A stretch of DNA of 64,000 bases. Source: Patescibacteria group bacterium. Lineage in GTDB: Bacteria; Patescibacteriota; Minisyncoccia; Phycocordibacterales; UBA2100. The translations under genes were made by a program, and so were the position numbers. This document shows positions 4,323 through 17,294 of this stretch, one piece after another. Under the pieces are notes generated by a model. That model saw only the letters and a list, made by a program, of their open reading frames with translations. It was not told the DNA's origin and did not search any database. The first letter of the stretch is position 1; the number at the start of each line of letters is the position of its first letter. The DNA lies in the NCBI GenBank assembly GCA_038062075.1, contig JBBTXY010000003.1, positions 17,589 to 81,588 of the forward strand, written 5' to 3'.

Positions 4323-5492
4323 ATGTTCACCATTTTTGCCAACATGTTCATAAACTCGGAGGAGCGCTTCGAGCACCTGAAGGATTCGTTCGAATCGTTC
4401 AGTACCGTGAGCGATGATTGGCTCATCAATATCCGAGGAAGATTTCGTGAACCTGTCATCGCCTGGCTTAAGGAGCGTCTCGGTGATAGAGCGACCTTTT
4501 TCGAACTCCTCGACGATTCGCGCGGCTGGACCGTGAATTCACTGGACATGGTTCGGCACGCCAGACACCCGTATGTCTTGTTCTGGCTGGAAGATCATAT
4601 GAATATCGCTCCGCAGTCGTATCTGCGCGATGTAGTCGAGGAGATGGCGGAGCACAAAGCCGACTACCTCCAGCATTCGTGGTGGCAGAACGGAAAATAC
4701 AGGCACTATTTTGACATCTTTGACCGACAACAGGGCACATCGATCGACACAGTCACCATTGGATATAACGAGTGGAAGAAGTGGCAAGACGCTGGCGACA
4801 ACGTGCAAATCATCTCTCTTCTCGGTATTTTCGAGAAGCATTTTCTCATCAAGATGCTGCAGTACGATCGCTTTATGCTTCCCATGTCGGTTAGGTCGTG
4901 GATTTTTCGCATCATGACTTTGTTGCAGCGGATGGGCCTGCGTTTCGATCAAAAGAAATGGTATCACCGGATCAATCGCTTGCTGCATTTCAAGATCCGC
5001 AGGCAACCGAAGGAAACCCCGCACGATTTCGAGAAAGAGCCGAATCGTTTTGACGTTCTTCCGATCCGGACTTCGGTTCCGCACCGCGAATTGTTCGCGT
5101 GCATGGATGATGATGACGATCCGGCGTGGAGGTCGTCTTTGATGACGCGCGGTCTCTACCCCTTGCGGGATCGCCTCGTGCGGTGGGACGAAAAAAAGCA
5201 GCCTGCGAAGCATTCACGCACCATCGCGGCGCTTAAGAAGGGCGCGTCGCTCCGGGAAGCGTACTGCTACTACAGCGCGAAAGGGGTGCGCCACGTGCTT
5301 TCTCGCGAATATATCCGCGTCGCGCGTGGGCGCGTCCGGGTTGCGGTGAAAGACGAACATGTCGAGCTGGGGGCGGGAGAAGGAGCCGCATTTTTCACCA
5401 ACATTCTACACGACATCGTCGCACTCGAAGACGCGGAGATCGAGCGATTCACGCCTGCAATCGGGCTTGCCCCGCACTATCTCCTGACGTAG
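4323..5492 (+). CDS. Hypothetical protein in glycan operon (no recognised domain)
   Basis: 389-aa ORF, tightly packed in operon; Trp/His-rich, no family recognised by eye. Confidence 0.5.
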   Translation: MFTIFANMFINSEERFEHLKDSFESFSTVSDDWLINIRGRFREPVIAWLKERLGDRATFFELLDDSRGWTVNSLDMVRHARHPYVLFWLEDHMNIAPQSYLRDVVEEMAEHKADYLQHSWWQNGKYRHYFDIFDRQQGTSIDTVTIGYNEWKKWQDAGDNVQIISLLGIFEKHFLIKMLQYDRFMLPMSVRSWIFRIMTLLQRMGLRFDQKKWYHRINRLLHFKIRRQPKETPHDFEKEPNRFDVLPIRTSVPHRELFACMDDDDDPAWRSSLMTRGLYPLRDRLVRWDEKKQPAKHSRTIAALKKGASLREAYCYYSAKGVRHVLSREYIRVARGRVRVAVKDEHVELGAGEGAAFFTNILHDIVALEDAEIERFTPAIGLAPHYLLT

Positions 5493-5501
5493 CATGGGCT
5501 G

Positions 5502-6044
5502 ATGACCGTATCGAAGGGCAAAAAGCCCAAGCATTTCATCCTTGACGTGGACGGTGTCATGACCGACGGCCAGTTTTATTACTCTGCCGAGGGGAAGGCG
5601 ATGAAGGCGTTCGGGCCGGATGACCATGATGGGCTTCTCTTATTGAAGCCCTATATCAACATCCATATCGTGACCGGCGACAAGAAGGGATTTCCGATAA
5701 CCAGGAAGCGTATTGCTGACGATATGAAGATGAAGCTCGACGTAGTGAGCACGGTTGAGCGGCTGCAGTGGATGAAGGAAAGCGGGTATGAGCTCGATGA
5801 GACGATCTACATGGGAGATGGCATTTTTGACGCCGTCGTCTTCGATAAAGTGGCGTATGCAATCGCGCCCGCGAATGCGTTCTACCTCACCAAAGAGCGC
5901 GCTGATTTTGTGACGCGATCCGTTGGCGGCGACAGCGCCGTTGCGGAAGCATGCGTGCACATTCTTGAGAAATTCTTCACGCCGTTCGACCCCCTCCACT
6001 TCAAGCTCGAGAAGTCGAGCGGCGAGTGGGGCGCACACGCATAA
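5502..6044 (+). CDS. HAD-IIIA phosphatase, KdsC/YrbI family (KDO-8-P / sialic-acid-9-P phosphatase-like)
   Basis: 'LDVDGVMTDG' motif I; typical KdsC length of 180 aa. Confidence 0.7.
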   Translation: MTVSKGKKPKHFILDVDGVMTDGQFYYSAEGKAMKAFGPDDHDGLLLLKPYINIHIVTGDKKGFPITRKRIADDMKMKLDVVSTVERLQWMKESGYELDETIYMGDGIFDAVVFDKVAYAIAPANAFYLTKERADFVTRSVGGDSAVAEACVHILEKFFTPFDPLHFKLEKSSGEWGAHA

Positions 6045-6046
6045 CT

Positions 6047-7621
6047 ATGAAGCACAAAGTCTGCATTCTCGCGGCAGGAGTGGGGAATCGGATGGGCGAG
6101 CTCTCCGAGCACGTCAATATCGCCGTCTTGCCCGTCAACAACAAAGCGGTGATTTCCTACATCATCGAGAAGTTCCCGATGCAGACCGAGTTTGTGATCG
6201 CGGTCGGCCACAAGAAAGAGACCGTCATCGACTATTTGAAACTTGCGCATCCCGAGCGAAGATTCACCTTCGTGCACGTCGACAAATACACCGGTCCGGG
6301 CACGGGCCCCGGGTACAGTATCCTGAAGTGCGAGAAGCACCTCCGGGAGCCCTTTATATTCTTTACGGCCGATACCATGGTCTTGGAGGATATTCCTCCG
6401 CCGGATCAGAACTGGATGGGAATCGCGCCGGTCAAGGAAACCGAGCTTTACTGCACGGTCCGCATGAGGAACAACCTCATCGTCCAGCTCGACAACAAGA
6501 TAAAGACCGACAACAAATTCGCTTTTATCGGGCTCGGCGGGGTGAAGGACTATGAAGATTTCTTCAGCGTGCTCACGCATGACCAGGAAATCCAGAAAGG
6601 CGAAGTGCAGGTCGTGACCGGATTTGCGCGCCTCATTGAAAAGAAACTCGTGCCCATAGGCTTCACGTGGTTTGACACCGGCTCCTTTAAGAACTACGCG
6701 GACACCAACCGCAACTTCTCCGGCGGCGGCACAAAATTCGATTTCAGCAAGGGCGATGAATTTCTGTATTTTGTGAACGGTCGTGTCATCAAGTTTTTTG
6801 CTGACGCGAAGACAGCGAAGAACCGCTATGAGCGCGCCACAAAACACCTGAAAGGTCTCGCGCCAAAAATGGAAGCGCACCGCGGCAATTTCTATTCGTA
6901 CAAACTCGTCGAAGGGCAGACGCTCTACAGCATGCTGAACGCGCGGCTCGTCAGGGAATTTCTCGCGTGGGCGTCCAAGCATCTGTGGAAACCGCTCAAG
7001 CTCGACGCGAAGAAGAAAAAAGAATTCGCCGCCGCGAGCAGGCGCTTTTATCGCGACAAAACGCTCGAGCGCGTCGAGGCATATCAGAAAAAAGTCGGGG
7101 AAGGAGAACGAGCAATCATCAATGGCCTCGAAGTGCCGCCGATTGCCGAGCTCCTCGGTAAGGTTGACTGGGACACGATGTCGGAGAGTATCCCCGTTCC
7201 CTTCCACGGCGATCTGCAGTTCGACAACGTTCTCTACGTGGGCGCAAAGAAAGGGCGGCATCCGTTCGTTCTTTTGGACTGGCGTCAGGATTTCGGCGGC
7301 CTCATCCACGCCGGCGACCTCTACTACGACCTCGCCAAGCTCTACGGCGGAGTGACGATGTCCTACCCCTTGATCAAAGAAGGCATGTTCACCTACACGG
7401 GCACGGACACCTCGGCCGACTACAAATTCTTCATCAAGAGCGATCTTCTGGAAGCCAAGGACGAGCTGGAAGATTTCATTCTCGCCAACAAGTACGACCT
7501 CAAAAAAATCCGGACGCTGACCGCGCTCATATTTCTCAACATGGCGCCCCTCCACCACGACCCGTTTGACCGGCTGTTGTACCACCACGGACGCTCGATG
7601 CTCCACAAAGCACTGAAGTGA
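6047..7621 (+). CDS. Bifunctional sugar-1-P nucleotidyltransferase (N) :: APH/choline-kinase-like kinase (C)
   Basis: N-terminal 'ILAAGVGNRMG' NTP_transferase P-loop; C-terminal 'HGDLQFDNVLY' Brenner kinase motif and 'DWRQD'. Same architecture as LicC-LicA and MurU-AmgK systems. Confidence 0.7.
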   Translation: MKHKVCILAAGVGNRMGELSEHVNIAVLPVNNKAVISYIIEKFPMQTEFVIAVGHKKETVIDYLKLAHPERRFTFVHVDKYTGPGTGPGYSILKCEKHLREPFIFFTADTMVLEDIPPPDQNWMGIAPVKETELYCTVRMRNNLIVQLDNKIKTDNKFAFIGLGGVKDYEDFFSVLTHDQEIQKGEVQVVTGFARLIEKKLVPIGFTWFDTGSFKNYADTNRNFSGGGTKFDFSKGDEFLYFVNGRVIKFFADAKTAKNRYERATKHLKGLAPKMEAHRGNFYSYKLVEGQTLYSMLNARLVREFLAWASKHLWKPLKLDAKKKKEFAAASRRFYRDKTLERVEAYQKKVGEGERAIINGLEVPPIAELLGKVDWDTMSESIPVPFHGDLQFDNVLYVGAKKGRHPFVLLDWRQDFGGLIHAGDLYYDLAKLYGGVTMSYPLIKEGMFTYTGTDTSADYKFFIKSDLLEAKDELEDFILANKYDLKKIRTLTALIFLNMAPLHHDPFDRLLYHHGRSMLHKALK

Positions 7622-7623
7622 GT

Positions 7624-8631
7624 ATGAGCCACGCGTTCAATGCACGCTTGGGCATTGGCCCGATGAGCACCGAAGCCATCGAGGCGACCTTTCACTATTC
7701 GCATTTCTACCGCAAAGAGCTGATGCTCATCGCGTCGAAAAATCAGATCGACTGGGGCGGCGGCTACGTCAACAACTGGACGACGAGGGACTATATAGAT
7801 TTCGTGCGTGCGATGCGTGCGAAATATCCTTTGGCCAACGTCCACGTGTGCCGCGATCACTGCGGGCCGGGATTCAACGGCATCCACGATTTGAAGGATG
7901 TCTACAAGACGATCGAAGACGACATCGCAAGCGGCTTCGATCTCATCCATATTGATTTCTGCCATTTTCTCGGCACCAAAGACGAGCAGTTCGACGAATC
8001 GAGACGGGCGATCAAGCACTGCCTCATGCTCAATCCGAAGATACGCATCGAGGTCGGTACCGACGAGAATATCGGTGTCACGTACGGTCTGCCGAACATT
8101 AACGAGCTTGAAAGGGAGATTGATTTCTTCAGAAGCGTCTGCGATCCGGAGTTCTACGTTGTCCAGACCGGCTCCTTGGTCTTGGAGACGCATCAGGCAG
8201 GCTCGTTCAACACGCCGTTCGTCGAGAAAATGTCCCTGCTCCTGCGTGAGAAGGGTATCAAAATGAAAGAGCACAATGCGGACTATCTCACGGAAGATGA
8301 CATTCTCCTCCGAAAGGGCCTTGTCGGCGCGATGAACATCGCGCCGCAACTTGGCGTGATTCAGACGCACTACATTCTTTCTAAATGCGCGGTGTATGGA
8401 CTCGACTCATCGGAATTTCTCAATAAAGTCTACGAGTCAGGCAAATGGAAGAAGTGGCTGAAGGATAACACTGCCGAGAACAAGATGCTCTGCTGTACGA
8501 TAGCGGGCCACTACCTCTTTGCTTCGGATGAGTACCGGCGTCTTGTTGATAAACTGGAGCGGTACGAAGATGTGCGGGAAGCTATCACGAACGAGCTTGC
8601 AAAGCTCATTGATCACTATGTTGCGCGGTAA
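7624..8631 (+). CDS. GatZ/KbaZ-family protein (tagatose-bisphosphate aldolase accessory / sugar-phosphate 4-epimerase family)
   Basis: 'LIASKNQIDWGGGYVNNWTTRDYIDFV...VCRDHCGP' resembles the GatZ 'ATSNQVNQFGGYTGMTP...GGDHLGP' block as recalled from memory. Confidence 0.55.
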   Translation: MSHAFNARLGIGPMSTEAIEATFHYSHFYRKELMLIASKNQIDWGGGYVNNWTTRDYIDFVRAMRAKYPLANVHVCRDHCGPGFNGIHDLKDVYKTIEDDIASGFDLIHIDFCHFLGTKDEQFDESRRAIKHCLMLNPKIRIEVGTDENIGVTYGLPNINELEREIDFFRSVCDPEFYVVQTGSLVLETHQAGSFNTPFVEKMSLLLREKGIKMKEHNADYLTEDDILLRKGLVGAMNIAPQLGVIQTHYILSKCAVYGLDSSEFLNKVYESGKWKKWLKDNTAENKMLCCTIAGHYLFASDEYRRLVDKLERYEDVREAITNELAKLIDHYVAR

Positions 8632-9331
8632 AACCATACTTATCACAGGCTCCTCCCGCGGTATCGGCGCCGCAACCGCGCGCCTCGCCAAAAAATACGG
8701 TGCGACTGTGATCCTACACGGGAAAGAGGATTCGAAAGAATTGAAGAAACTCTCCAAAGAGCTTGCCGCACAGTATGTTGTCTTTGATGTCGCAGACGAG
8801 CGCGCCGCTCGAAAGGCAATCGCGAAACGCGGCGTCGACATTCTGGTGAACAATGCGGGGATCAGCATCTCGAAGCCATTTCAGGAGCTCACGAGCAGGG
8901 ACTGGCATGAGACGCTTTCGACGAATGTCATGGGGGTCGTGAACGTCTCGAAAGCGGTTATTCCGGCGATGGTGAAAAGAAAGCACGGCACGATCGTCAA
9001 CGTCTCGTCAATAAAGGGGTACCCCCATACGGCCGGCCGTGCGGCCTTTGCCGCTTCGAAGGCCGCGATTATCACGCTTACGGCGAGCATGGCAAAAGAA
9101 TTCGCTCCGCAGATTCGCGTCAATGCCGTCGCTCCTGGATTCACGGAAACAGAGACGACGAAGAAAGCGTGGGGCGAGCGGATCTATACGCAGATCAGCA
9201 CAACGCCCTTAGGGAGAGCGGCACAGCCGGAGGAGATCGCACAAGCGATTCTCTTTCTCGCAAGCGACGCGTCAGCGTTCATGACGGGGCAGACGATGAT
9301 TGTTGATGGCGGATACAGTATCGCGGGGTAA
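8618..9331 (+). CDS. Short-chain dehydrogenase/reductase (FabG-like)
   Basis: 'TILITGSSRGIGAATA' Rossmann, 'NNAG', S-Y-K triad region; starts inside upstream gene end. Confidence 0.8.
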   Translation: MLRGKTILITGSSRGIGAATARLAKKYGATVILHGKEDSKELKKLSKELAAQYVVFDVADERAARKAIAKRGVDILVNNAGISISKPFQELTSRDWHETLSTNVMGVVNVSKAVIPAMVKRKHGTIVNVSSIKGYPHTAGRAAFAASKAAIITLTASMAKEFAPQIRVNAVAPGFTETETTKKAWGERIYTQISTTPLGRAAQPEEIAQAILFLASDASAFMTGQTMIVDGGYSIAG

Positions 9332-9340
9332 TATACCGGT

Positions 9341-9811
9341 ATGGATCGGAAAAAATGGAGTCAGGAGGAAAAAGATGTTAAGCTTGTCGCGAAGCCGTGG
9401 GGTAACGGCACGATTGGCGGCGTGGAAGGGGTTGGAGAACTGTGGCTCAATTACAAACGCGGGGAGAACGTGGGCGATGAAGAGAAGCGCTATGTGTTCA
9501 AGAAACTCTACATCAAGAAGGGAACCAAGACGAGCTTCCAATATCATATAAATAAATTGGAGACGAATCACCTCATCAGCGGTCTGGCAGAAGGACACAT
9601 GGAAAATGACAACGGAGAGATGGAGAAGAGTATTTTCGGGCCTGGTGATTCGTGGACTATTCCCTGCGGCAAAAAACATCGTCTCATCGCGCTTGAGGAT
9701 ATGGTCATGTTGGAAGCTTCGACGCCGGAAGTGGATGATGTGGTGCGCATCGCAGATGACACAGGTCGTGGAGACGGCCGCATCGAAAGCGAGCACCAAA
9801 AGGGAAACTGA
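9341..9811 (+). CDS. Cupin-fold protein, type-II phosphomannose-isomerase C-domain-like
   Basis: 'KPWG...ELW' and 'GPGDSWTIPCGKKHRL' cupin motifs. Confidence 0.6.
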   Translation: MDRKKWSQEEKDVKLVAKPWGNGTIGGVEGVGELWLNYKRGENVGDEEKRYVFKKLYIKKGTKTSFQYHINKLETNHLISGLAEGHMENDNGEMEKSIFGPGDSWTIPCGKKHRLIALEDMVMLEASTPEVDDVVRIADDTGRGDGRIESEHQKGN

Positions 9812-9812
9812 T

Positions 9813-10730
9813 ATGGCTGAAACACTCCAACAAAAAGAGCCGTCACTCGTAGAACGATTCAAAGAGATTGGTTTCGATGATCATGTGATGCTTGCGGCAC
9901 AAGGTGCCGCGCGACTGGGTGCGCGGCAGATATTGAAATTCCACGGTGCGAGTCAGGAGAAACTTCGAACGGAATTGAAGGCAGGCGATATGACTCCTGT
10001 TACGGCTGCGGATATTGCATCGGAAGAGGCGATTCTCAAAATCATAACGACTCGATTGTATTCTCCAGACGAAGTACATGCGGAGGAAAAAGGCCGCGCT
10101 GATACCGCTGAGCACAGTATTATGTGGTACGTTGATCCTCTGGATGGCACTCGGAGTTTTACGCGTGAACAAACAGCTTCCACTGTAGGTATCTGCATGT
10201 ATGAACACAACGAGCCACACACCGCAGTAATCTGTCGACCGTTCCAGTGTGAGCTATTACTCGCGGGTAAAGGAAGAGGCGCATTTGTATTTCCACTTGA
10301 CGACAAGCAGAAAATAATCGGTCCGGCAAAGCGCGTTCACGTAGCAGAGAGAAAAGATCTCACAGGTGGGATTTTCTATTGGGACGGCGTCATGACAGGA
10401 AAGAATGTCGATCGTGCCCTCAGGATGTTTGAAGGGGTGATAGCGGATACCGGAAAAACCGATTTCCGCGCGTTGGGGACGAATATAGGCGAGCAGGCCG
10501 AAGTTGCGCTCGGACACGGCGACTTAAAGTTAACGACCGGCGTCGGGGGATTCTACGATATCGCAGTGGGGGGGTTAATAATCCAGGAAGCCGGAGGGGA
10601 GGTTATTGATGAAAACGGCAAGCCGATAAGCCCGGGATCTAAAGCTGCGCTCTTTGGTAATCCGGAACTCATTAAAAAGTACGGCCCCTTGTTCCAACAG
10701 TGCTATGCGGGCTATGACGGTTTCGCTTAG
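9813..10730 (+). CDS. Inositol monophosphatase family protein (IMPase/FBPase/CysQ fold) paralogue 1
   Basis: 'WYVDPLDGTRSF' plus 'EE' metal-binding motifs. Confidence 0.8.
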   Translation: MAETLQQKEPSLVERFKEIGFDDHVMLAAQGAARLGARQILKFHGASQEKLRTELKAGDMTPVTAADIASEEAILKIITTRLYSPDEVHAEEKGRADTAEHSIMWYVDPLDGTRSFTREQTASTVGICMYEHNEPHTAVICRPFQCELLLAGKGRGAFVFPLDDKQKIIGPAKRVHVAERKDLTGGIFYWDGVMTGKNVDRALRMFEGVIADTGKTDFRALGTNIGEQAEVALGHGDLKLTTGVGGFYDIAVGGLIIQEAGGEVIDENGKPISPGSKAALFGNPELIKKYGPLFQQCYAGYDGFA

Positions 10731-10738
10731 AGCGCCCT

Positions 10739-11458
10739 ATGATCAACTATAAGGTTCTACTTCCGACATCTGGTACGGGTTCGCGACTGAAGGAAATAAC
10801 AAAAAATACCAATAAAGCATTAGTCTCTATTGCAGGAAAGCCTGCCATTGAATATATTCTTTCCTCTTATCCCAAAGAGGTACCAATAGTCGTCACGCTC
10901 GGGTACCTCGGAGAGAGCGTGAAAGCGTACCTCGAAAGCAATCACTCTGATCGGACATTCGAATTTGTGTGGGTTGATAAGTACGAAGGGCCCGGATCGA
11001 GCCTTGGCTATTCGATGCTGAAAGCAAAAGACAACCTCCAGTGCCCCTTCATCTTCCACGCCTGCGACGGCATCTTTGTGGAGCCTATCCCTACGCCGGA
11101 ATACAACTGGATAGGCGGATTTGTGGATGACTGGGAGACGACTAACTTGCCGCTTGAACAGTACCGGACACACACAATGAAGGACGGCGTGATACTCAAT
11201 CTCAATGACCGCGGAATTCCCGGATTTGATTCCATTCACATCGGCCTCGACGGCATCTTCGATTACAAAATCTATTGGGAGACCCTGCAGGCGATTTACG
11301 ATAAAGACCCGAACGACGCGCAAATATCCGATGTGCCCATTCTTGATGCGATGATACAAGCAGGCGTGCAATTCAAATGGATCCCCTACAAAGTCTGGCT
11401 CGACACGGGGAATATTCCCGCACTGCAGAGAACCACAGATTTTCTTTCTACTCAATAA
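10739..11458 (+). CDS. Sugar/alcohol-phosphate nucleotidyltransferase (LicC-like), paralogue of the N-domain of 6047-7621
   Basis: 'KVLLPTSGTGSRL'; 'FVWVDKYEGPGSSLGYSML..PFIFHACDGI' is collinear with 'FVHVDKYTGPGTGPGYSIL..PFIFFTADTM' in the fusion. Confidence 0.7.
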   Translation: MINYKVLLPTSGTGSRLKEITKNTNKALVSIAGKPAIEYILSSYPKEVPIVVTLGYLGESVKAYLESNHSDRTFEFVWVDKYEGPGSSLGYSMLKAKDNLQCPFIFHACDGIFVEPIPTPEYNWIGGFVDDWETTNLPLEQYRTHTMKDGVILNLNDRGIPGFDSIHIGLDGIFDYKIYWETLQAIYDKDPNDAQISDVPILDAMIQAGVQFKWIPYKVWLDTGNIPALQRTTDFLSTQ

Positions 11459-11464
11459 AGTAAG

Positions 11465-11488
11465 AAGCCCCGGTCCTTACCGGGGCTT
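11465..11488. terminator. Bidirectional hairpin terminator between convergent genes
   Basis: Perfect 9-bp stem AAGCCCCGG/CCGGGGCTT with 6-nt loop, directly after stop codon 11458. Confidence 0.5.
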
Positions 11489-11499
11489 CCACGTCACTG

Positions 11500-12186
11500 T
11501 CACTGAATGAGTTGTTCTCGCGCCCACGCGAGCAGTTCTATCGGCAGGTCAGGTTGAGGGTCGCTCCAACCCTTTCCCGGCCAGTCTGCTACACGCACAA
11601 ACTCGTTTAAAAGTTCTGCGCGATGCAGGGGGTTTTCTGCACACAAAGGATCATGCATACACACCACCTGATAGTCGGCAGAGAAACCTTTCTCATCCCG
11701 TGCGATTTTTGTGTGCACGGCATACACCCGCCGAGCACTCCTTGGGTGTACCACCAGAATGATCCGAGTATGTGGCAATCCAAGCCGCACGATCGTGTCT
11801 ATGCCGAAGCGGGAGTTTTCTGCCCCGTTCTTTGCTTTTGTCTCAAGGCGGATCACGTCGCAGGGTACACCGTGGTCAGCGACCAGCAGATTTCTTTGAT
11901 GTATCGCCTCGGAACCGGAAGCTCTGGATAGCTCGCCGGAGTCTTTGCCGATGCCGCCTGTAAGCAAGATCCAGTCGATCTTTCCCAGGCGGTACAGTTT
12001 GGCTGCCGCCCGCGCCACCTCCGCATCTTCCCTGCAGAAGACAAAAGCGCCATTGGCATATTGTACACGGGAGTCATCCGGGGGCAGGAGTCCCATACCC
12101 ATGTACAACGCAACCTGCTGAAGTTTCTCTGAGTCCTTCAAAGGACCCTCCTCTCTGTTCGCTCTTCGCTTCAGCAAGCGAAGCAC
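11500..12186 (-). CDS. DUF218 / YdcF(ElyC/SanA)-like envelope-associated protein
   Basis: 'WILLTGGIGKDSGELS..SEA...ETKAKNGAENS' DUF218 pattern. Confidence 0.55.
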   Translation of the reverse strand: MLRLLKRRANREEGPLKDSEKLQQVALYMGMGLLPPDDSRVQYANGAFVFCREDAEVARAAAKLYRLGKIDWILLTGGIGKDSGELSRASGSEAIHQRNLLVADHGVPCDVIRLETKAKNGAENSRFGIDTIVRLGLPHTRIILVVHPRSARRVYAVHTKIARDEKGFSADYQVVCMHDPLCAENPLHRAELLNEFVRVADWPGKGWSDPQPDLPIELLAWAREQLIQ

Positions 12187-12294
12187 GAGGAGAAAGCTTT
12201 GTCAATTGGAATGTAGCTGGGCGCAGGCGACATTACATGCGGCCGCGACAACGATCATGTCTGGTGGCTATCTTCGGGCAGAGGAAATATAGTA

Positions 12295-12333
12295 GGTAAA
12301 AAACAAACGGTCTCCCCAGCGGGCTGGGGAGAC
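12295..12333 (-). terminator. Rho-independent terminator for IMPase gene (minus strand)
   Basis: Perfect 10-bp stem GGTCTCCCCA/TGGGGAGACC; on minus strand followed by a T-run (GTTTGTTTTTT). Confidence 0.6.
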
Positions 12334-12351
12334 CGAAAGATCGTGTGCTCG

Positions 12352-13227
12352 CTAAACGCGCAACACCTTGTCGCATAGATAGTCGACGATTTGCGGTGAG
12401 TTGCCGGTAACGAGGACGTCATACGCGAGGACGTCAAGAGGGTCGCATTCGGTGAATGAAAAGAGCTCCTTCTTGAACGCCCGGCAGAATCCGCCTGCCT
12501 GCTCCACGAGCAGTGACCCGCAGACATCCCACGGGCCGCCGATTGCGAGCGTGAGCGATCCGGCGATGGAGCGAGCACCATTCGCGACGAGCGCCTGATG
12601 CAAGCCGTTCGAGCCCGGGAGCAGGATTTTCACCTCGCCGTTAAGCGAAGCAAAGAGCTTCGCAGTCTGCGCATCGGTGAGTATCTGCCGACCAGCGCGC
12701 TTAAAGCCATGCGAGACGTCGACGAGAATTGTCAGTTGCTCGTTGACCTCGCTCGTCCTCTTGCCGTCCCATTCGTTGCCGACTTGTATCGGGGCCGAGT
12801 TTTCTCCTGTGGCGAAATTGTGCCACAGAAGCTGGGTTAGCGTTATGTCGCTCGCTGACCATATCCGGCCGGTAGCCGGTTCGCCAATGACGCACCGTGT
12901 TACCTTATGTACATTGTGGTCGTACGTTGCCGCGATGACTGTTGATGTTGCCAATCCGATGGCGAAGGCTCGCGTGCCGTCCATCGGATCCACCAATATT
13001 TTGACTGGCGCATCCACCGTGTGTCGGTCGGACTCCTCGGCATGGATGTAGGTGCCGGGGATGCCTTGCAGAACCTCAAGCATTGCCGCTTGGCTCTGCT
13101 TGTCGGTCGGCGTCACTTGCGTGCCGTCCGTCTGCTTCACTGCGGTCGTGGTCGGCCGGCCTTGGTTGGCACGGACGACTTTCATGCCCGCGATCACTGC
13201 CGTCGTGAGACGGTCGAGCATCTCCAT
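12352..13227 (-). CDS. Inositol monophosphatase family protein paralogue 2
   Basis: 'ILVDPMDGTRAF' motif. Confidence 0.75.
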   Translation of the reverse strand: MEMLDRLTTAVIAGMKVVRANQGRPTTTAVKQTDGTQVTPTDKQSQAAMLEVLQGIPGTYIHAEESDRHTVDAPVKILVDPMDGTRAFAIGLATSTVIAATYDHNVHKVTRCVIGEPATGRIWSASDITLTQLLWHNFATGENSAPIQVGNEWDGKRTSEVNEQLTILVDVSHGFKRAGRQILTDAQTAKLFASLNGEVKILLPGSNGLHQALVANGARSIAGSLTLAIGGPWDVCGSLLVEQAGGFCRAFKKELFSFTECDPLDVLAYDVLVTGNSPQIVDYLCDKVLRV

Positions 13228-13363
13228 TTCTGTACTCCCTTAAAGAGCGAGTGGCATAATGCCACGAGGCAAAAACTATATCACGCCGATAGCAATGTGA
13301 CAAGAGTCGCATTGCCGCTTGTGCTCGAGTCAAAAAGGCTCCATTAATGATATTGTATGCACA

Positions 13364-14278
13364 ATGAAGAAGAAGATTTTGGTGACTGGAGTCGCTGGAT
13401 TCATCGGAAGCAATCTCGCGAAAAGGCTCGTCGAGGCGGGGTATGACGTGGTCGGCTTGGACAACTTTTCCCAGGGCATCCCCGAGCATGTGCCTTCCGG
13501 CATGCGTTTCAAGCAAGCCGATATCCGCTCCCGCGACATAGCACCACTCTTTCGTGGGATAGACGTCGTCTTTCACCTTGCCGCGAAGAATTCGCTTCGG
13601 GATTGCCAGGAAGATCCTGTGGGCACGATGGAGATGAATGTCGTCGGGACCGCGAACGTTTTCGACGTGTCCTTAAAAGCCGGCGTGAAGAAAGTGATCT
13701 ACGCGCAATCGTCGGTTGTTGAAGAAGGCGAGGAGCGCAGAAAAGGTTTCTATGCGATAAGCAAGATCACAGATGAGCTACTCGCGGGCGGGTTTCAGAC
13801 TATGGGTCTCACGACGGTCGGCCTCCGCTATTTCAATGTCTACGGCCCGGGGCAGGATTATCGCCGCTCCTCGCCGCCCATTATGAGCCGCTTCATCTCC
13901 ACGCTCCTCAAAGGGGAGCAGCCAGTTCTTTTTGAGGGTGATGAGAACAACAAGCGCGATTTCATACACGTCGACGACATCAACGATTTCCATCTCCTCT
14001 GTGTCGAAGACGAGCGGGTCGACAATCGAGTGTTTCGGCTAGGGACCGGGAAGAATTTCTCGATGGTTGAAGTGCTCGATACGGTTCAGAAAGTGCTCGG
14101 CACTCACACCGAGTCCTCCCACAAGCCGCGCCCTCCGCATGATCCTCCAGTCCAAACCCTCGCCGATATCAGCGAAACGACCGCACTCGGATGGCAGCCG
14201 ACAATCGGGCTTGAAGAAGGAGTCCGTAGTATGGTGCCCTATATCAAGGCTGAAATAGAGCGCGGGGCTCTCAAGTAG
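13364..14278 (+). CDS. NAD-dependent nucleotide-sugar epimerase/dehydratase (extended SDR)
   Basis: 'ILVTGVAGFIGSNL', 'YAISK' YxxxK. Confidence 0.8.
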   Translation: MKKKILVTGVAGFIGSNLAKRLVEAGYDVVGLDNFSQGIPEHVPSGMRFKQADIRSRDIAPLFRGIDVVFHLAAKNSLRDCQEDPVGTMEMNVVGTANVFDVSLKAGVKKVIYAQSSVVEEGEERRKGFYAISKITDELLAGGFQTMGLTTVGLRYFNVYGPGQDYRRSSPPIMSRFISTLLKGEQPVLFEGDENNKRDFIHVDDINDFHLLCVEDERVDNRVFRLGTGKNFSMVEVLDTVQKVLGTHTESSHKPRPPHDPPVQTLADISETTALGWQPTIGLEEGVRSMVPYIKAEIERGALK

Positions 14279-14310
14279 ACAAGCCCAGATCAAGGGAGTA
14301 CTCTGGCACA

Positions 14311-15303
14311 ATGATAATCACACGGACGCCATTTCGGGTGACTCTTGGCGGCGGCGGGACGGATTTGCCTGCCTACTACGAAAAACACGGCGGGTTCATC
14401 TTTTCCGCCGGACTCGACAAATACATGTATGTGACGGTAAACCGCCCTATGGAAGATGATCTCGTCCGCATCAAATACAGCGCGACTGAAGTCGTCAAGA
14501 AAGTAAAAGACATCAAGCATCCGATCGCACGAGAAGCTCTTACCATGCTGGGCGTTGAGAAGCAGGTCGAGATCAGTTCGGTTGCGGATGTTTCTGCGGG
14601 TACTGGTCTTGGCTCATCGAGCTGTTATGCGGTCGGGATTCTCCACGCGCTCCACGTGATGAAGCGCGATTATGTGCCGCTCCAGACGATCGCGGAAGAA
14701 GATTTTCTTCTGGAGAATAAGAAACTTGGCCGTCCGATAGGGAAGCAAGACCCCTACATGGCCGCGTTCGGCGGGCTCACGGTCTTAGATATCGCCAAAA
14801 ACGGTTCTGTGAAAGTCCGCAAAGCAAATGTATCGCAAGAAGCGGCCGACACGCTGAATCGCAACATGCTCATGTTCTTTACGGGGGTCACACGCAGTGC
14901 CGACGACATTCTCAAGCAACAGTCAAAGGCCTTCAAAGGAAACAAAAAAGACGCGACCGAGAGCATGCACTACATCAAGGAGATTGGGCACGAGATACTT
15001 GCGGCCATGGAGGATGACGAAGTTGATGAAGTGGGAAGGCTCTTCGATGCACACTGGCGACACAAGAAGAAGACAGCAAGCGGCATGTCGAACTCGAAGT
15101 TTGATGCGATCTACGAGACGGCGAAAGATGCCGGGGCGCTTGGGGGGAAGATTTCCGGCGCTGGCGGCGGCGGATTCTTTACATTCTATGTCCCGGAGAG
15201 GCACAAAGAATTCAGGAAGGCAATGCAGAAGTACGGCCTTCGCGAACTTCGCTACCACTTTGACTTCGAGGGATCAAAAGTCTTGGCCGACATCAGCCAG
15301 TAG
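14311..15303 (+). CDS. hddA: D-glycero-alpha-D-manno-heptose 7-phosphate kinase (GHMP kinase)
   Basis: 'MIITRTPFRVTLGGGGTDLP' HddA-type N-terminus; GHMP 'GLGSSS' motif. Confidence 0.7.
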   Translation: MIITRTPFRVTLGGGGTDLPAYYEKHGGFIFSAGLDKYMYVTVNRPMEDDLVRIKYSATEVVKKVKDIKHPIAREALTMLGVEKQVEISSVADVSAGTGLGSSSCYAVGILHALHVMKRDYVPLQTIAEEDFLLENKKLGRPIGKQDPYMAAFGGLTVLDIAKNGSVKVRKANVSQEAADTLNRNMLMFFTGVTRSADDILKQQSKAFKGNKKDATESMHYIKEIGHEILAAMEDDEVDEVGRLFDAHWRHKKKTASGMSNSKFDAIYETAKDAGALGGKISGAGGGGFFTFYVPERHKEFRKAMQKYGLRELRYHFDFEGSKVLADISQ

Positions 15304-15305
15304 CT

Positions 15306-16040
15306 ATGAAGGATCCGAAGCCGGTGCACAAACTGCGTCTGAAGATATTCGCTGATGGCGCAGAGAAAGACGGCATGCTCGCGCTTGCGAAAGAGCCTTT
15401 TATTAAGGGGTTTACCACCAACCCGACTCTCATGAAAAAGGCGGGTATTACTGATTATGCGGCGTTTGCAAAAGATATTCTCGCCTCCATAACAAAAAAA
15501 CCCATCTCATTCGAGGTTTTTTCCGACGATTTTGATGAGATGGAGCGGCAGGCGCGCATCATCAATGCGTGGGGGGAGAATATCTACGTGAAAATTCCGG
15601 TTACCAACACGAAAAAGAAGTCGGCCGCGGCGCTCGTCAGAAAGCTCTCTCATGAAGGGATTCGACTCAATGTCACGGCGCTTCTTACGCTTGTGCAAGT
15701 GAAGGAAATGACCGCAGCGCTCTCGCCGAAAACTCCCGCGATCATTTCTGTCTTTGCCGGCCGCATTGCGGATACGGGTTACGACCCGCTTCCTATCATG
15801 AAAGCCGCAAAAGCGATCACCTTGAGAAAGAAAAATATTGAGCTTCTCTGGGCGTCGCCGCGCCAGCTCTTTGACATCTACAATGCCGAGGCTGCGGGAG
15901 CCGATATTATTACGGTGACGCACGACGTTCTCAAAAAACTCGACAAGATCGGGTACGACCATACGGCACTTTCCCTGGACACGGTGAAAATGTTCTATGA
16001 CGACGGCCAGAAAGTTGGCTACACACTCTATGAAGCGTGA
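15306..16040 (+). CDS. tal: Transaldolase (short Tal/Fsa type)
   Basis: 'LKIFADGAE...GFTTNPTLM' transaldolase signature; lies between hddA and gmhA. Confidence 0.8.
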   Translation: MKDPKPVHKLRLKIFADGAEKDGMLALAKEPFIKGFTTNPTLMKKAGITDYAAFAKDILASITKKPISFEVFSDDFDEMERQARIINAWGENIYVKIPVTNTKKKSAAALVRKLSHEGIRLNVTALLTLVQVKEMTAALSPKTPAIISVFAGRIADTGYDPLPIMKAAKAITLRKKNIELLWASPRQLFDIYNAEAAGADIITVTHDVLKKLDKIGYDHTALSLDTVKMFYDDGQKVGYTLYEA

Positions 16041-16047
16041 GGCAAAA

Positions 16048-16710
16048 ATGAGAACGAAGAAGAAGCGCACTCGCACAAAAAAGCGGATCGCAAGAAAAAC
16101 GAGCTACCACGATCACATTCACGGCTACTTGGACGAAGTGAAGCTTATCGCGGAGCGGATTGATCGCGAAGCGATCAATGACATGATCAACCTGCTTGCG
16201 GATGTGCGCGATAAAAAGGGGCGGCTCTTCATTCTTGGTGTTGGCGGCTCTGCGGCCAACGCTTCTCATGCCGTCAATGATTTTCGAAAAATCGGGCACA
16301 TCGAGGCATACACGCCGGTGGATAATGTCGCAGAGTTAAGCGCCCGTACGAACGACGACGGATGGGAATCGGTCTTCGCCCGATGGCTGGAGCGCAGTGG
16401 CGTTCGGAAAGATGACGCCGTCATGGTGTTTTCTGTTGGCGGCGGGAATGCCGAGAAGAATATAAGCGCCAATATCGTGCATGCACTTAACACTGCCAAA
16501 GCTGCAGGCGCGAAGATCATGGGTATCGTGAGCCGTGATGGAGGTTATACCGCACAAGTTGCCGATGCCTGTGTCATCGTGCCAGTCGTAAATCCCGACA
16601 ACGTGACCGCGCACGCGGAGGCGTGGCAGGCGGTCGTCTGGCACGCGATGGTCCTCCATCCGAAATTCAAGCGTATTGAGGCAACATGGGAGTCAATCCA
16701 AAAAAGATAG
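16048..16710 (+). CDS. gmhA: Sedoheptulose-7-phosphate isomerase (SIS domain)
   Basis: 'LFILGVGGSAANASHAVNDF' SIS motif; N-terminal Lys/Arg-rich extension. Confidence 0.7.
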   Translation: MRTKKKRTRTKKRIARKTSYHDHIHGYLDEVKLIAERIDREAINDMINLLADVRDKKGRLFILGVGGSAANASHAVNDFRKIGHIEAYTPVDNVAELSARTNDDGWESVFARWLERSGVRKDDAVMVFSVGGGNAEKNISANIVHALNTAKAAGAKIMGIVSRDGGYTAQVADACVIVPVVNPDNVTAHAEAWQAVVWHAMVLHPKFKRIEATWESIQKR

Positions 16711-17294
16711 AACTTATTCGCCAAGTGTGGGCAAAAGGGAACCGTGTCGCACGGCCCGCAGTTTTTTTTGACAGGGACGGGGTTGTGATCCGACAGCGTA
16801 ATGTGGTGAGCGAGGAGAAACATATGCGCCCGCTTGCGGGAGCAGCTGCAGGACTACGCTCACTTCAGGAGTGCGGATTTCTGCTCATCATCATCACGAA
16901 TCAGCCGTCCATTGAAAAGGGTATGGTGACGGAGGCGCGCGCGCGAAGACTTAATGAGTATTTATACCAGGAGCTCAAGAAAAAAAGAGTAACATTTGAC
17001 GCATCGTACACGTGTCCGCATCGTTTCGGGACGGAGTGCACCTGCCGCAAGCCGGGTCTCGAGCTCATCCGCGCGGCACAAAAAGATTTCAAAATTGATA
17101 TGAAGCAGAGCTGGCTTATCGGCGATACGACGCGTGATATGGAAACTGGACGCCGCGCCAAGCTAAAGACGATTCTCGTCAAAACCGGCGATGGCGGGAA
17201 AGATAAAAGATTTTTCAAAACGCGAGGGGACATTGAAACGCGAAATTTGCGCCTCGCGGCGCAGGCCATTGCAAAGAAGAAGGGCCGACTGTAA
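16686..17294 (+). CDS. gmhB: D,D-heptose 1,7-bisphosphate phosphatase (HAD-IIIA, Zn-binding CxHx..CxC)
   Basis: 'VFFDRDGVV' plus 'CPHRFGTECTCRKP' zinc motif typical of GmhB/HisB-N. Confidence 0.7.
   Translation: MGVNPKKIELIRQVWAKGNRVARPAVFFDRDGVVIRQRNVVSEEKHMRPLAGAAAGLRSLQECGFLLIIITNQPSIEKGMVTEARARRLNEYLYQELKKKRVTFDASYTCPHRFGTECTCRKPGLELIRAAQKDFKIDMKQSWLIGDTTRDMETGRRAKLKTILVKTGDGGKDKRFFKTRGDIETRNLRLAAQAIAKKKGRL

Follow-up and report, generated by a model that had tools for sequence, protein, structure and literature searches.

The window, the 64,000-nucleotide stretch of DNA analysed here, derives from a groundwater Patescibacteria MAG and contains, at 5502–11458 on the + strand, a block of seven ORFs, each beginning with ATG and separated, in order, by 2, 2, −14, 9, 1, and 8 nt. 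Public annotation of the source contig gives the same ORFs, save for an alternative IMPase start. A preliminary description had presented the block as a seven-gene operon with tight junctions, ended by a hairpin terminator. The seven ORFs, their tight junctions, and the hairpin were confirmed, with two corrections: only genes 1–5 (hereafter, the cassette) are conserved as a unit, and the tight block starts further upstream. Specifically, the co-directional tight block reaches upstream to at least 3024, with gaps upstream of the cassette of 9 nt to the gene at 4323–5492 and 3 nt to a GT4 gene. A 12-bp, G+C-rich hairpin is present at 11463–11490, between convergent gene ends; no clear U-tract or T-run follows it on the + strand, and it is probably a bidirectional terminator.

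Predicted activities of the core genes

HMM or fold evidence reproduced all domain assignments of the preliminary description, with several family scores of the window proteins falling under curated cut-offs. Core gene 1 (5502–6044, + strand) encodes a KdsC-like HAD-IIIA phosphatase (TIGR01670, 73 bits, below cut-off). Its product scores 72 bits with the KdsC equivalog and 70 bits with KDN-9-P phosphatase, both under the cut-offs; has best PDB sequence matches that are all KdsC/YrbI; and is predicted to strip a terminal phosphate from a sugar phosphate. Core gene 2 (6047–7621, + strand) encodes a fusion of a sugar-phosphate nucleotidyltransferase (NTase; residues ~1–225) and an APH/choline-kinase-like kinase (residues ~230–524), with an NTP_transf_3 match over GA (31 bits) and a weak APH match. 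Sugar-1-P enzymes align with the NTase domain from one end to the other, and LicC and inositol-1-P cytidylyltransferases score level with RmlA. By structure, the kinase domain neighbours APH(4), choline kinases, FN3K, and MTR kinase, with anomeric sugar kinases not singled out. Source annotations often label the fusion protein "choline kinase".

Core gene 3 (7624–8631, + strand) encodes a compact GatZ/KbaZ-like TIM barrel of the class-II-aldolase fold, which scores 24.8 bits against PF08013, just short of the GA of 26.7. The fold comparison that the preliminary description had named for this protein bore out the assignment: with an AF2 model (pLDDT 88.7), Foldseek returned GatZ (2fiq, TM 0.80) as the best match, followed by class II FBP/TBP aldolases. 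The NQ..GGY, DH.GP, IHxD, and EHxxDY motifs line up with GatZ, and the catalytic residues D87/H88 and H257 are retained, at positions to which Zn-site and catalytic-base roles have been given (PMC11907403). Both proteins have the D-H pair and also the second of the His residues in the proposed Zn site. The cassette protein is ~85 residues shorter than GatZ/KbaZ (335 vs 420 aa), is ~14–18% identical, falls under the Pfam gathering score, and has a biosynthetic, not catabolic, context. E. coli GatZ/KbaZ have been reported to be F6P/T6P 4-epimerases (PMC11907403), and the cassette protein is predicted to be a ketose-phosphate C4 epimerase, or an aldolase.

Core gene 4 (8618–9331, + strand) encodes a FabG/glucose-1-dehydrogenase-like classical SDR (adh_short_C2, 198 bits), with the glucose 1-dehydrogenase subfamily as best NCBIfam match (210 bits vs a cut-off of 215). 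Core gene 5 (9341–9811, + strand) encodes a type-II-PMI-like cupin, a putative ketose-phosphate/aldose-phosphate isomerase. The PF01050 match, weak in the window protein itself, is found in 18/18 cupin family members (best E 5e-10), and matches to GMP_PMI models extend to the model C-terminus. Residues S65, Q67, H69, E74, and H113 and a D..R..D...R tail are invariant.

Distribution and neighbourhood of the cassette

The evolutionarily conserved unit comprises five genes (5502–9811), encoding the KdsC-like HAD, the NTase::kinase fusion, the GatZ-like protein, an oxidoreductase, and the cupin. Across 80 loci from different species, clustered ORF calls place the fusion gene in 80/80, the GatZ-like gene in 72/80, and the cupin gene in at least 62/80; tblastn places a KdsC-like HAD beside the fusion gene in ~61/80; and 61/80 have one dehydrogenase, be it of the one fold or the other. 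In particular, the oxidoreductase slot contains a FabG-like SDR in 22 loci, an SdhL-type/AroE-like protein in 39, and both in 0. Depending on the lineage, one or the other of two unrelated folds supplies the redox step. The SDR is predicted to carry this step in the window, with the SdhL-type protein taking its place elsewhere. The AroE-like member matches HI0607 (SdhL) over its full length (142 bits) and keeps the catalytic Lys/Asp, with an N-terminal Ser-x-x-x-Arg-Pro-x-Asn-x-Gly replacing the carboxylate-binding Ser-x-Ser of AroE. We know of no physiological substrate for SdhL; the shikimate-dehydrogenase family does contain a keto-sugar reductase, 5-ketofructose reductase (PDB 7cok).

All six activities are retained in 73 IMG/VR viral contigs, where a triple fusion (cupin::NTase::kinase) is accompanied by genes for a short AroE-like protein, a GatZ-like protein, and a small HAD; the cupin is joined in frame to the NTase-kinase in 70–73 of these contigs. 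Co-occurrence of the six activities is obligatory. A synteny search of the kind the preliminary description had suggested thus recovered the same gene set in 153 loci (80 genome loci and 73 viral contigs), spanning two domains of life and viruses, and this recurrence makes the arrangement far from chance. The carriers are CPR bacteria, DPANN archaea, Gram-negative lineages, and tailed phages. The cellular copies lie in glycan clusters, and the DPANN copies are ~55% identical to, and interleaved with, CPR copies; the cassette is widely transferred.

The GatZ/KbaZ, PMI, IMPase, and SDR families each include catabolic or central-metabolic members, as would suit catabolic or housekeeping genes adjacent by chance, such as tagatose/galactitol utilisation genes beside unrelated transferases. 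This explanation is extremely improbable, being effectively refuted by the synteny. The gene set is always anchored on the kinase-NTase fusion within glycan clusters; no catabolic-operon transporter or regulator recurs among the neighbour families; and the HMM searches, for which the preliminary description had raised housekeeping families as a possible outcome, missed all housekeeping equivalog cut-offs.

Neighbours include Leloir-type GTs, Wzx flippase, Wzy_C/Wzy-like ligases, methyltransferases, NAD epimerase/dehydratases, DegT aminotransferase, and other sugar-modifying enzymes, and a ROK sugar kinase adjoins the cassette in three loci. With a Patescibacteria MAG as host, the earlier label "LPS-core" is an unlikely one for this context, and "surface glycan cluster" is the safer choice. 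The gene 9 nt upstream of the cassette (4323–5492, + strand) encodes a 389-aa protein assigned to no family, with zero NCBIfam matches and a weak C-terminal Cupin_2 match alone. In 10 other loci, a homologue (29–67% identity) is located no further than 10 kb from the cassette, and in six of them it adjoins the cassette directly; the protein is a candidate transferase or modifier acting on the cassette product.

The last two genes of the block are rare accessories, accompanied by genes for a DUF218 protein and another IMPase. The first encodes an IMPase-superfamily phosphatase (9813–10730, + strand; PF00459 (Inositol_P), 114 bits) that misses every cut-off of the HisN, CysQ, and SuhB equivalogs and has homologues in only ~11/80 loci. 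The other encodes a stand-alone NTase (10739–11458, + strand; PF00483 (NTP_transferase), 24 bits), a paralogue of the fusion N-terminal domain (32% identity, BLASTP E 5e-37) with orthologues in ~17 loci, often adjoining IMPase or DUF218 genes. The DUF218 protein (11500–12186, − strand; PF02698, 37.7 bits) has orthologues (35–49% identity) no more than ~4 kb from the cassette in 9 CPR/DPANN loci; in five of these, the fusion gene follows immediately downstream. The second IMPase-superfamily protein (12352–13227, − strand; PF00459, 59 bits) is of another subtype (28% identity to the first) and has homologues near the cassette in loci L001, L006, L008, L019, L027, and L028. A transaldolase/FSA gene and a heptose-type block with canonical-looking GHMP/SIS/HAD genes lie 2 kb downstream in the window, and the stand-alone NTase may serve that block.

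Proposed pathway and alternatives

On balance, genes 5502–9811 appear to encode a self-contained pathway for the de novo synthesis of a rare sugar, starting from a central ketose phosphate, and for its supply as an NDP-sugar to the adjoining glycosyltransferases. The folds and families, retained catalytic motifs, co-occurrence of the six activities, and glycan-cluster context described above are observed; the substrates, step order, redox position, nucleotide used, and final sugar are what we infer. The reproduced domain calls and the glycan-cluster neighbours support the earlier proposal of an activated unusual sugar. The accompanying claim that no canonical pathway matches also stands: no characterised cluster with this gene set was found among PDB sequences, NCBIfam equivalogs, plasmid/phage records, and the full-text literature; the cassette ORFs missed all curated NCBIfam equivalog cut-offs; and the searches found no characterised homologue, solved structure, or paper on function for the cassette proteins.

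In step 1, the GatZ-like barrel would epimerise a ketose phosphate at C4 through Zn-dependent retro-aldol/aldol chemistry, with fructose-6-P to tagatose-6-P and sedoheptulose-7-P to D-manno-heptulose-7-P as candidate reactions. In step 2, the PMI-like cupin would turn the new ketose phosphate into an aldose phosphate of talo/galacto-type configuration; in step 3, the NAD(P) oxidoreductase (SDR here, SdhL-like elsewhere) would alter one carbinol or carbonyl centre; and in step 4, the KdsC-like HAD would take off the terminal phosphate, as KdsC does ahead of CMP-Kdo formation. The APH-like kinase domain would then phosphorylate the anomeric hydroxyl (step 5), and the fused NTase domain would condense the sugar-1-P with an NTP (step 6). 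A variant order in the style of the heptose pathway, in which the kinase would act first to give a bisphosphate and the phosphatase next, is equally compatible with the data.

The GatZ-like protein could instead be a true aldolase, with the cassette extending a chain to a higher sugar, like Kdo or the lincosamide octose. The cupin would isomerise a pentose or hexose phosphate, the aldolase would add a C3 unit (dihydroxyacetone or DHAP), and the resulting heptulose, octulose, or nonulose phosphate would undergo reduction, lose its phosphate to the KdsC-like enzyme, and be activated. The combination of isomerase, aldolase-fold protein, KdsC-like phosphatase, and NTase parallels KdsD/KdsA/KdsC/KdsB of the Kdo route; in every KdsC-family substrate, a polyol side chain ends in a phosphate; the fold neighbours include class II aldolases, YdjI among them; and the downstream transaldolase/FSA gene and heptose-type block would suit such chemistry. 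We nevertheless consider chain extension distinctly unlikely: the nearest fold and motif matches are GatZ/KbaZ, reported epimerases and not aldolases; PMI-type cupins are known for hexose-6-P substrates; and a C3 donor lacks direct evidence.

In the NDP-sugar reading, the obligatory dehydrogenase is without explanation, since a plain route from ketose phosphate to NDP-aldose requires no redox chemistry. The reductase would gain a natural role in the synthesis of an NDP-polyol or phospho-alcohol donor by LicA/LicC or TarI/TarJ logic. Here the dehydrogenase would reduce a ketose or aldose phosphate to an alditol phosphate, the HAD would free the alditol, the kinase would act on a primary hydroxyl, and the NTase would form a CDP-alditol, from which alditol-phosphate would pass to a glycan or teichoic-acid-like polymer. 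Consistent with this, an E. coli plasmid capsule locus contains a distant kinase analogue with a small HAD alongside, adjoining a TagF-like CDP-glycerol glycerophosphotransferase and a Stealth protein. However, in a survey of 120 representative neighbour families, confined to those matched by two or more members, no LicD, TagF-like, or Stealth phosphotransferase recurred; the PMI-like isomerase, though universally conserved, would be redundant; and the NTase alignment with sugar-1-P enzymes runs from end to end. Moreover, the neighbouring NDP-sugar epimerase/dehydratases and aminotransferase need an NDP-aldose, with no other NTase near; the fusion is the sole recognisable NTase in 42/43 viral loci with an NDP-sugar epimerase/dehydratase. 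We therefore regard an NDP-alcohol as somewhat unlikely and favour an NDP-sugar.

An activated cyclitol (inositol-like) is very unlikely. The dehydrogenase and aldolase-fold protein would together turn a hexose phosphate into a cyclitol phosphate, by cyclisation or interconversion, and the phosphatases (HAD, IMPase) and kinase-NTase would yield an NDP-cyclitol. Cyclohexane polyols are substrates of shikimate-dehydrogenase-family enzymes, IMPase-family genes accompany the cassette here and in ~10 other loci, and the NTase domain is structurally close to inositol-1-P cytidylyltransferases. Yet the cassette contains no MIPS-like or DHQS/EEVS-like cyclase, most loci have no IMPase, and 22 loci, this one included, have an ordinary FabG-like SDR as the dehydrogenase. 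In addition, GatZ-type C3-C4 retro-aldol cleavage of a 2-ketose is not obviously ring-forming, and the PMI-like cupin suggests open-chain aldose/ketose chemistry.

Relation to known systems

The cassette has a logic in common with the GDP-D-glycero-alpha-D-manno-heptose pathway (GmhA, HddA, GmhB, HddC), whose product goes to surface glycans: ketose-P to aldose-P isomerisation, C1 phosphorylation, loss of the terminal phosphate, and nucleotidylation. The enzymes differ: the isomerase is a PMI-type cupin instead of a SIS domain, the kinase has an APH instead of a GHMP fold and is fused to the NTase, and the phosphatase is KdsC-like instead of GmhB-like. The cassette also adds two obligatory steps, those of the GatZ-like protein and the oxidoreductase, and the canonical-looking GHMP/SIS/HAD block is separate from it.

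AmgK-MurU (MurNAc/GlcNAc anomeric kinase and uridylyltransferase) and Fkp are kinase-pyrophosphorylase pairs of salvage or recycling, whereas the cassette pair ends a de novo route (epimerase, isomerase, reductase, phosphatase); PDB searches found no sequence-level match between AmgK and the cassette. LicA-LicC (choline kinase and CTP:phosphocholine cytidylyltransferase) is among the best structural or sequence neighbours of both fusion domains, but the cassette has no LicB or LicD partner, its partners being sugar-phosphate enzymes.

Bifunctional type II PMI-GMP (ManC/AlgA/XanB) likewise brings a PMI cupin and an NTase into one pathway, and the cassette cupin has matches to PF01050 and, in their C-terminal part, to the GMP_PMI models. 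As the curated cut-offs are not reached, the cassette product is probably something other than mannose-6-P. The cassette also has a kinase and a phosphatase where the PMI-GMP route uses a phosphomutase. The isomerase-NTase fusion of ManC/AlgA is mirrored by the viral cupin::NTase fusion, in which the domain order is reversed.

Gene block and conserved core

Seven plus-strand ORFs, all opening with ATG, occupy 5502–11458 as the preliminary description had proposed, and their coordinates match the public gene calls for the source contig, apart from an alternative start of the IMPase gene: a KdsC-like HAD gene (5502–6044), an NTase-kinase fusion gene (6047–7621), a GatZ-like gene (7624–8631), an SDR gene (8618–9331), a cupin gene (9341–9811), an IMPase gene (9813–10730), and a second NTase gene (10739–11458). 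The junctions are as tight as claimed, with inter-ORF gaps of 2, 2, −14, 9, 1, and 8 nt. The left boundary drawn at 5502 is arbitrary, because tight co-directional genes continue upstream: the gene for a 389-aa protein (4323–5492, plus strand) lies 9 nt away, and a GT4 gene lies 3 nt beyond that one. At the right boundary, the hairpin said to terminate the block is present as a 12-bp, G+C-rich stem (11463–11490) before the convergent DUF218 gene, and lacks a clear U-tract on the plus strand. A strong terminator-like hairpin with 12 bp, 9 G–C pairs, and a T-rich tail lies at 12308–12335 on the minus strand, downstream of the minus-strand IMPase gene. Scans of the 64-kb window returned no tRNA genes and no Rfam families at the gathering score.

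We fetched 80 species-level loci and mapped the window proteins onto each. Clustered ORF calls place the fusion in all 80 loci, the GatZ-like protein in 72, and the cupin in 62 or more; by tblastn, the KdsC-like HAD is present in about 61. The SDR occurs in 22 loci and an AroE-like gene, coding for an SdhL-type shikimate-dehydrogenase-like protein, in 39 others; no locus has both, and the 19 loci with neither are mostly short or truncated contigs. The SDR and the AroE-like protein represent a non-orthologous displacement at one obligatory redox step. The synteny of the cassette excludes chance adjacency of catabolic genes as an explanation, and also rules out the IMPase and the second NTase, present in about 11 and about 17 of the 80 loci, as core steps. 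These two genes tend to co-travel with the DUF218 gene (11500–12186, minus strand) and a gene for a second IMPase subtype (12352–13227, minus strand), both of which have orthologues near the cassette in other CPR and DPANN loci; 9813–11458 together with 11500–13227 is a recurrent accessory module. As a conserved unit, the "seven-gene operon" therefore gives way to a five-gene core (5502–9811) and an accessory set.

Further downstream, plus-strand genes at 13319–17294 code for an NAD epimerase/dehydratase, a GHMP kinase, a transaldolase/FSA protein, an SIS protein (GmhA-like), and an HAD protein (GmhB-like). This block has no NTase of its own and looks like a GDP-heptose-type or Lmb-octose-like pathway, which the stand-alone NTase (10739–11458) may serve. 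In two of the cassette loci (L044 and L052), an NTase paralogue is followed by similar GHMP, SIS, and HAD genes.

Protein families of the cassette

HMM searches reproduced all seven domain assignments of the preliminary description. Specifically, the 524-aa fusion contains an NTP_transf_3 domain and a weak APH match, the SDR has a strong FabG-like match, the IMPase a strong Inositol_P match, and the second NTase a weak NTP_transferase match. None of the seven proteins reaches an NCBIfam equivalog cut-off, and therefore none is orthologous to a named housekeeping enzyme. The cassette proteins are divergent members of the GatZ, PMI, KdsC-like HAD, NTase, and APH superfamilies, with no orthology to any characterised enzyme.

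The GatZ-like protein scores 24.8 bits against PF08013, under the gathering threshold of 26.7, with an alignment limited to the N-terminal third; precomputed Pfam assigns PF08013, flagged as weak, to an identical protein (P0121) and to most homologues. The AF2 model (pLDDT 88.7) has a class-II-aldolase TIM-barrel fold nearest to GatZ: the best Foldseek matches are 2fiq (TM 0.80) and 3txv, with TM of 0.75–0.80 and E of 1e-14, and FBP/TBP class II aldolases and YdjI rank behind GatZ. HMM alignments to GatZ place NQ..GGY, DH.GP, IHxD, and EHxxDY motifs in the protein, and the residues of these motifs, among them D78/H79, H217, and N40-Q41...G47-Y48, do not vary across 32 homologues. Both GatZ and KbaZ of E. 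coli are reported to epimerise fructose-6-phosphate to tagatose-6-phosphate, with a GatZ active site comprising D87, H88, H257, and E171 (PMC11907403). In particular, D87/H88 and H257 of the proposed Zn site of GatZ have counterparts in the GatZ-like protein, which is predicted to be a ketose-phosphate 4-epimerase or aldolase.

The cupin assignment to PMI rests on Pfam and NCBIfam; a PDB profile search returned only generic bicupins. PF01050, the C-terminal domain of type II PMI, is matched by 18 of 18 cassette cupins tested (best E 5e-10), and no other family is matched by the full set; the window cupin itself scores 21.7, under the gathering threshold of 23.6. Matches to GMP_PMI models extend to the end of those models. 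Residues Q67, H69, E74, and H113 are invariant and, going by PMI motifs, are putative metal ligands.

The HAD protein scores 73.2 against TIGR01670 (cut-off 106.95) and 71.8 against NF007019 (cut-off 208), and the PDB proteins most similar to it are all KdsC/YrbI, with KDN-9-phosphate phosphatase next. By these scores it is a KdsC-like HAD-IIIA protein rather than a KdsC orthologue.

The NTase domain of the fusion scores above the family gathering threshold and has an RmlA/GalU/LicC-type fold (PF12804/PF00483 fold). The kinase domain has an APH/choline-kinase-like fold (PF01636), with HxDxxxxN as its catalytic loop and a metal-binding Asp further along. Neither sequence nor profile searches of the PDB gave a significant match for this domain; it is placed by fold comparison, which does not single out a substrate. 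The kinase family comprises 438 clusters at 50% identity (E ≤ 1e-30), and most of the 150 clusters listed of these 438 are proteins of 500–550 aa with the kinase at about residues 230–520. The fusion as a whole has about 3,000 detectable homologues.

The AroE-like protein of orthologous cassettes matches H. influenzae HI0607 (SdhL; 1npy) over its full length (142 bits, residues 7–261) and scores 218 bits against PRK12550, below the cut-off of 306. Compared with E. coli AroE, it keeps the catalytic Lys/Asp pair and has an unlike N-terminal substrate motif. Since the shikimate-dehydrogenase family includes a keto-sugar reductase (7cok), reduction or inversion of a sugar carbon by the cassette oxidoreductase is plausible by analogy.

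Proposed pathway and glycan context

Six activities are retained throughout: a GatZ-like epimerase/aldolase, a PMI-like isomerase, an oxidoreductase, a phosphatase, a kinase, and an NTase. This set is read most economically as a route in which a rare sugar is made de novo and then activated as in salvage. The GatZ-like protein would convert a ketose phosphate to its C4 epimer; the cupin would yield the aldose phosphate; the oxidoreductase would introduce a redox modification; the KdsC-like HAD would strip the terminal phosphate, as in the Kdo pathway; the kinase would phosphorylate the anomeric position; and the NTase would transfer the nucleotidyl group. The last two steps being consecutive would explain why the kinase and NTase are fused. 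Equally possible is an order in the style of the heptose pathway, in which the kinase step would precede the phosphatase step. As a matter of chemical inference, a start from fructose-6-phosphate would give a talo- or galacto-configured hexose, and a start from sedoheptulose-7-phosphate would give a D-glycero-D-talo- or D-glycero-D-galacto-heptose. A further-reaching reading, held at somewhat under even odds, is that the product is a nucleotide-activated monosaccharide that lies outside the current glycan alphabet or has no established biosynthesis; a redox-inverted L-series sugar and an NDP-D-talo/galacto-configured hexose or heptose are candidates.

The setting of the cassette is rich in glycan genes. 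Its neighbours include GT1, GT2, and GT4 transferases, WavE-like proteins, Wzx flippases, and Wzy_C ligases, as well as sugar C-methyltransferases and many other methyltransferases, carbamoyltransferases, radical SAM proteins, NAD-dependent epimerase/dehydratases, and DegT aminotransferases. Of the 43 viral loci with an NDP-sugar epimerase/dehydratase, 42 have the fusion as their sole recognisable NTase within 8 kb. Three loci have a ROK sugar kinase abutting the cassette. Homologues of the 389-aa protein (4323–5492), which matches no Pfam or NCBIfam family except for a weak C-terminal cupin match, are no more than 10 kb from the cassette in 10 loci and directly adjacent in six; the protein may be a glycosyl- or other transferase that uses the cassette product.

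The same kinase and NTase could instead follow the logic of LicA/LicC and make an NDP-alditol or phospho-alcohol donor, which is possible at lower probability. Unlike in LicABCD, however, the LicB permease and LicD transferase are absent among the recurrent neighbours of the cassette, as are TagF-like and Stealth proteins, among the neighbour families matched by at least two members. An activated cyclitol and a chain-extension route to a higher sugar are likewise possible, each with a lower probability than the rare-sugar route. The overall logic of that rare-sugar route resembles the GDP-heptose, Kdo, PMI-GMP, and AmgK-MurU pathways, but none of these shares its combination of folds and its two extra steps. 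In particular, the GDP-heptose pathway (GmhA/HddA/GmhB/HddC) uses an SIS isomerase and a GHMP kinase, whereas the cassette has a cupin and an APH-fold kinase; SIS, GHMP, and HAD genes occur in the window as a separate block (14311–17294).

Searches of the full-text literature, the PDB, and plasmid and phage records turned up no description of the cassette in a paper, a solved structure, or an annotated record, nor the same gene order in a characterised cluster with a known product; the GatZ epimerase paper (PMC11907403) was the only useful one found by the full-text search on this gene combination. We rate the cassette as a nucleotide-sugar-biosynthesis system that is known in kind and has a variant gene set. 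If the prediction holds, it would be a widespread nucleotide-sugar route without a characterised member, would give the orphan SdhL class its first physiological role and GatZ-like epimerases a biosynthetic one, and would supply glycan-pathway annotation with one more building block and four new enzyme specificities.

A 275-aa family (c24) occurs in eight loci that belong to the second fusion clade (L047, L050, L058, L059, L065, L066, L068, and L069) and adjoins the GatZ-like gene in seven of these. It was considered as a GatY-like aldolase partner and dropped: the sequence looks like that of a GT-A-type transferase, with an N-terminal motif similar to that of GT-A glycosyltransferases, and matches no family or PDB entry.

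Distribution, transfer, and viral forms

The closest homologues of the fusion are from Kaiserbacteria and Paceibacteria, and full-length homologues of about 60% identity occur, unexpectedly, in Woese-, Pace-, Nano-, and Iainarchaeota. Within this first clade (clade A), mean CPR–DPANN identity (55.5%) equals mean CPR–CPR identity (54.5%), and CPR and DPANN sequences interleave in a neighbour-joining tree. On this basis, sequence comparison indicates inter-domain transfer of the whole cassette between CPR and DPANN, with archaeal identity taken from MAG record titles alone (MAG contigs including L005, L006, L008, L012, L014, L023, L029, L034, and L053). The second clade (clade B) is about 38% identical to the window protein and about 60% identical within itself, and has the same partners as the window cassette in a different gene order. 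Its carriers, all MAGs and SAGs, are Geobacter, Burkholderiales, Bdellovibrionota, Verrucomicrobiota, Planctomycetota, SAR86, and Pelagibacteraceae.

A third arrangement is found in 73 IMG/VR contigs (L082–L154), in which cupin and NTase-kinase make up a single in-frame cupin::NTase::kinase fusion of about 637 aa (for example, L082:7584–9557). The triple fusion is followed by a short AroE-like gene (213 aa) and the GatZ-like gene, and one of two small HAD families is present in 65 of the 73 loci. At least some of these contigs are genuine tailed phages, because tail sheath and tail fibre PHROGs lie within 8 kb of the cassette in some of them.

The episymbiotic lifestyle of CPR and DPANN depends on surface contacts, and the cassette lies in surface-glycan loci of these least understood microbes, as well as in marine and freshwater bacteria and their phages. 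If the proposed function is correct, the cassette would be a mobile module for remodelling cell surfaces, swapped among CPR, DPANN, Gram-negative bacteria, and tailed phages, and would be a documented case of a complete sugar pathway moving between domains and by way of viruses.

A look-up of cultured carriers returned only MAG or metagenome proteins, and tblastn of the fusion against plasmids and isolate phages returned only distant partial analogues, located on an E. coli capsule plasmid, in Enterococcus phages, and in one unannotated marine virus. In the capsule locus of the E. coli ST131 plasmid NZ_CP103510.1 (L081, 26–34 kb), genes for a 131-aa HAD and for an APH-family protein of 536 aa adjoin those for a TagF-like CDP-glycerol glycerophosphotransferase and a Stealth protein. 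The 536-aa protein is 26–34% identical to the cassette kinase in its kinase region, and its N-terminal 300 aa match no family. Enterococcus phages Planchet, 9183, and TJE4 (phage records H10–H13) encode a protein that is 25% identical to the fusion kinase domain and is annotated as NDP-sugar pyrophosphorylase-like or as a glycosyltransferase.
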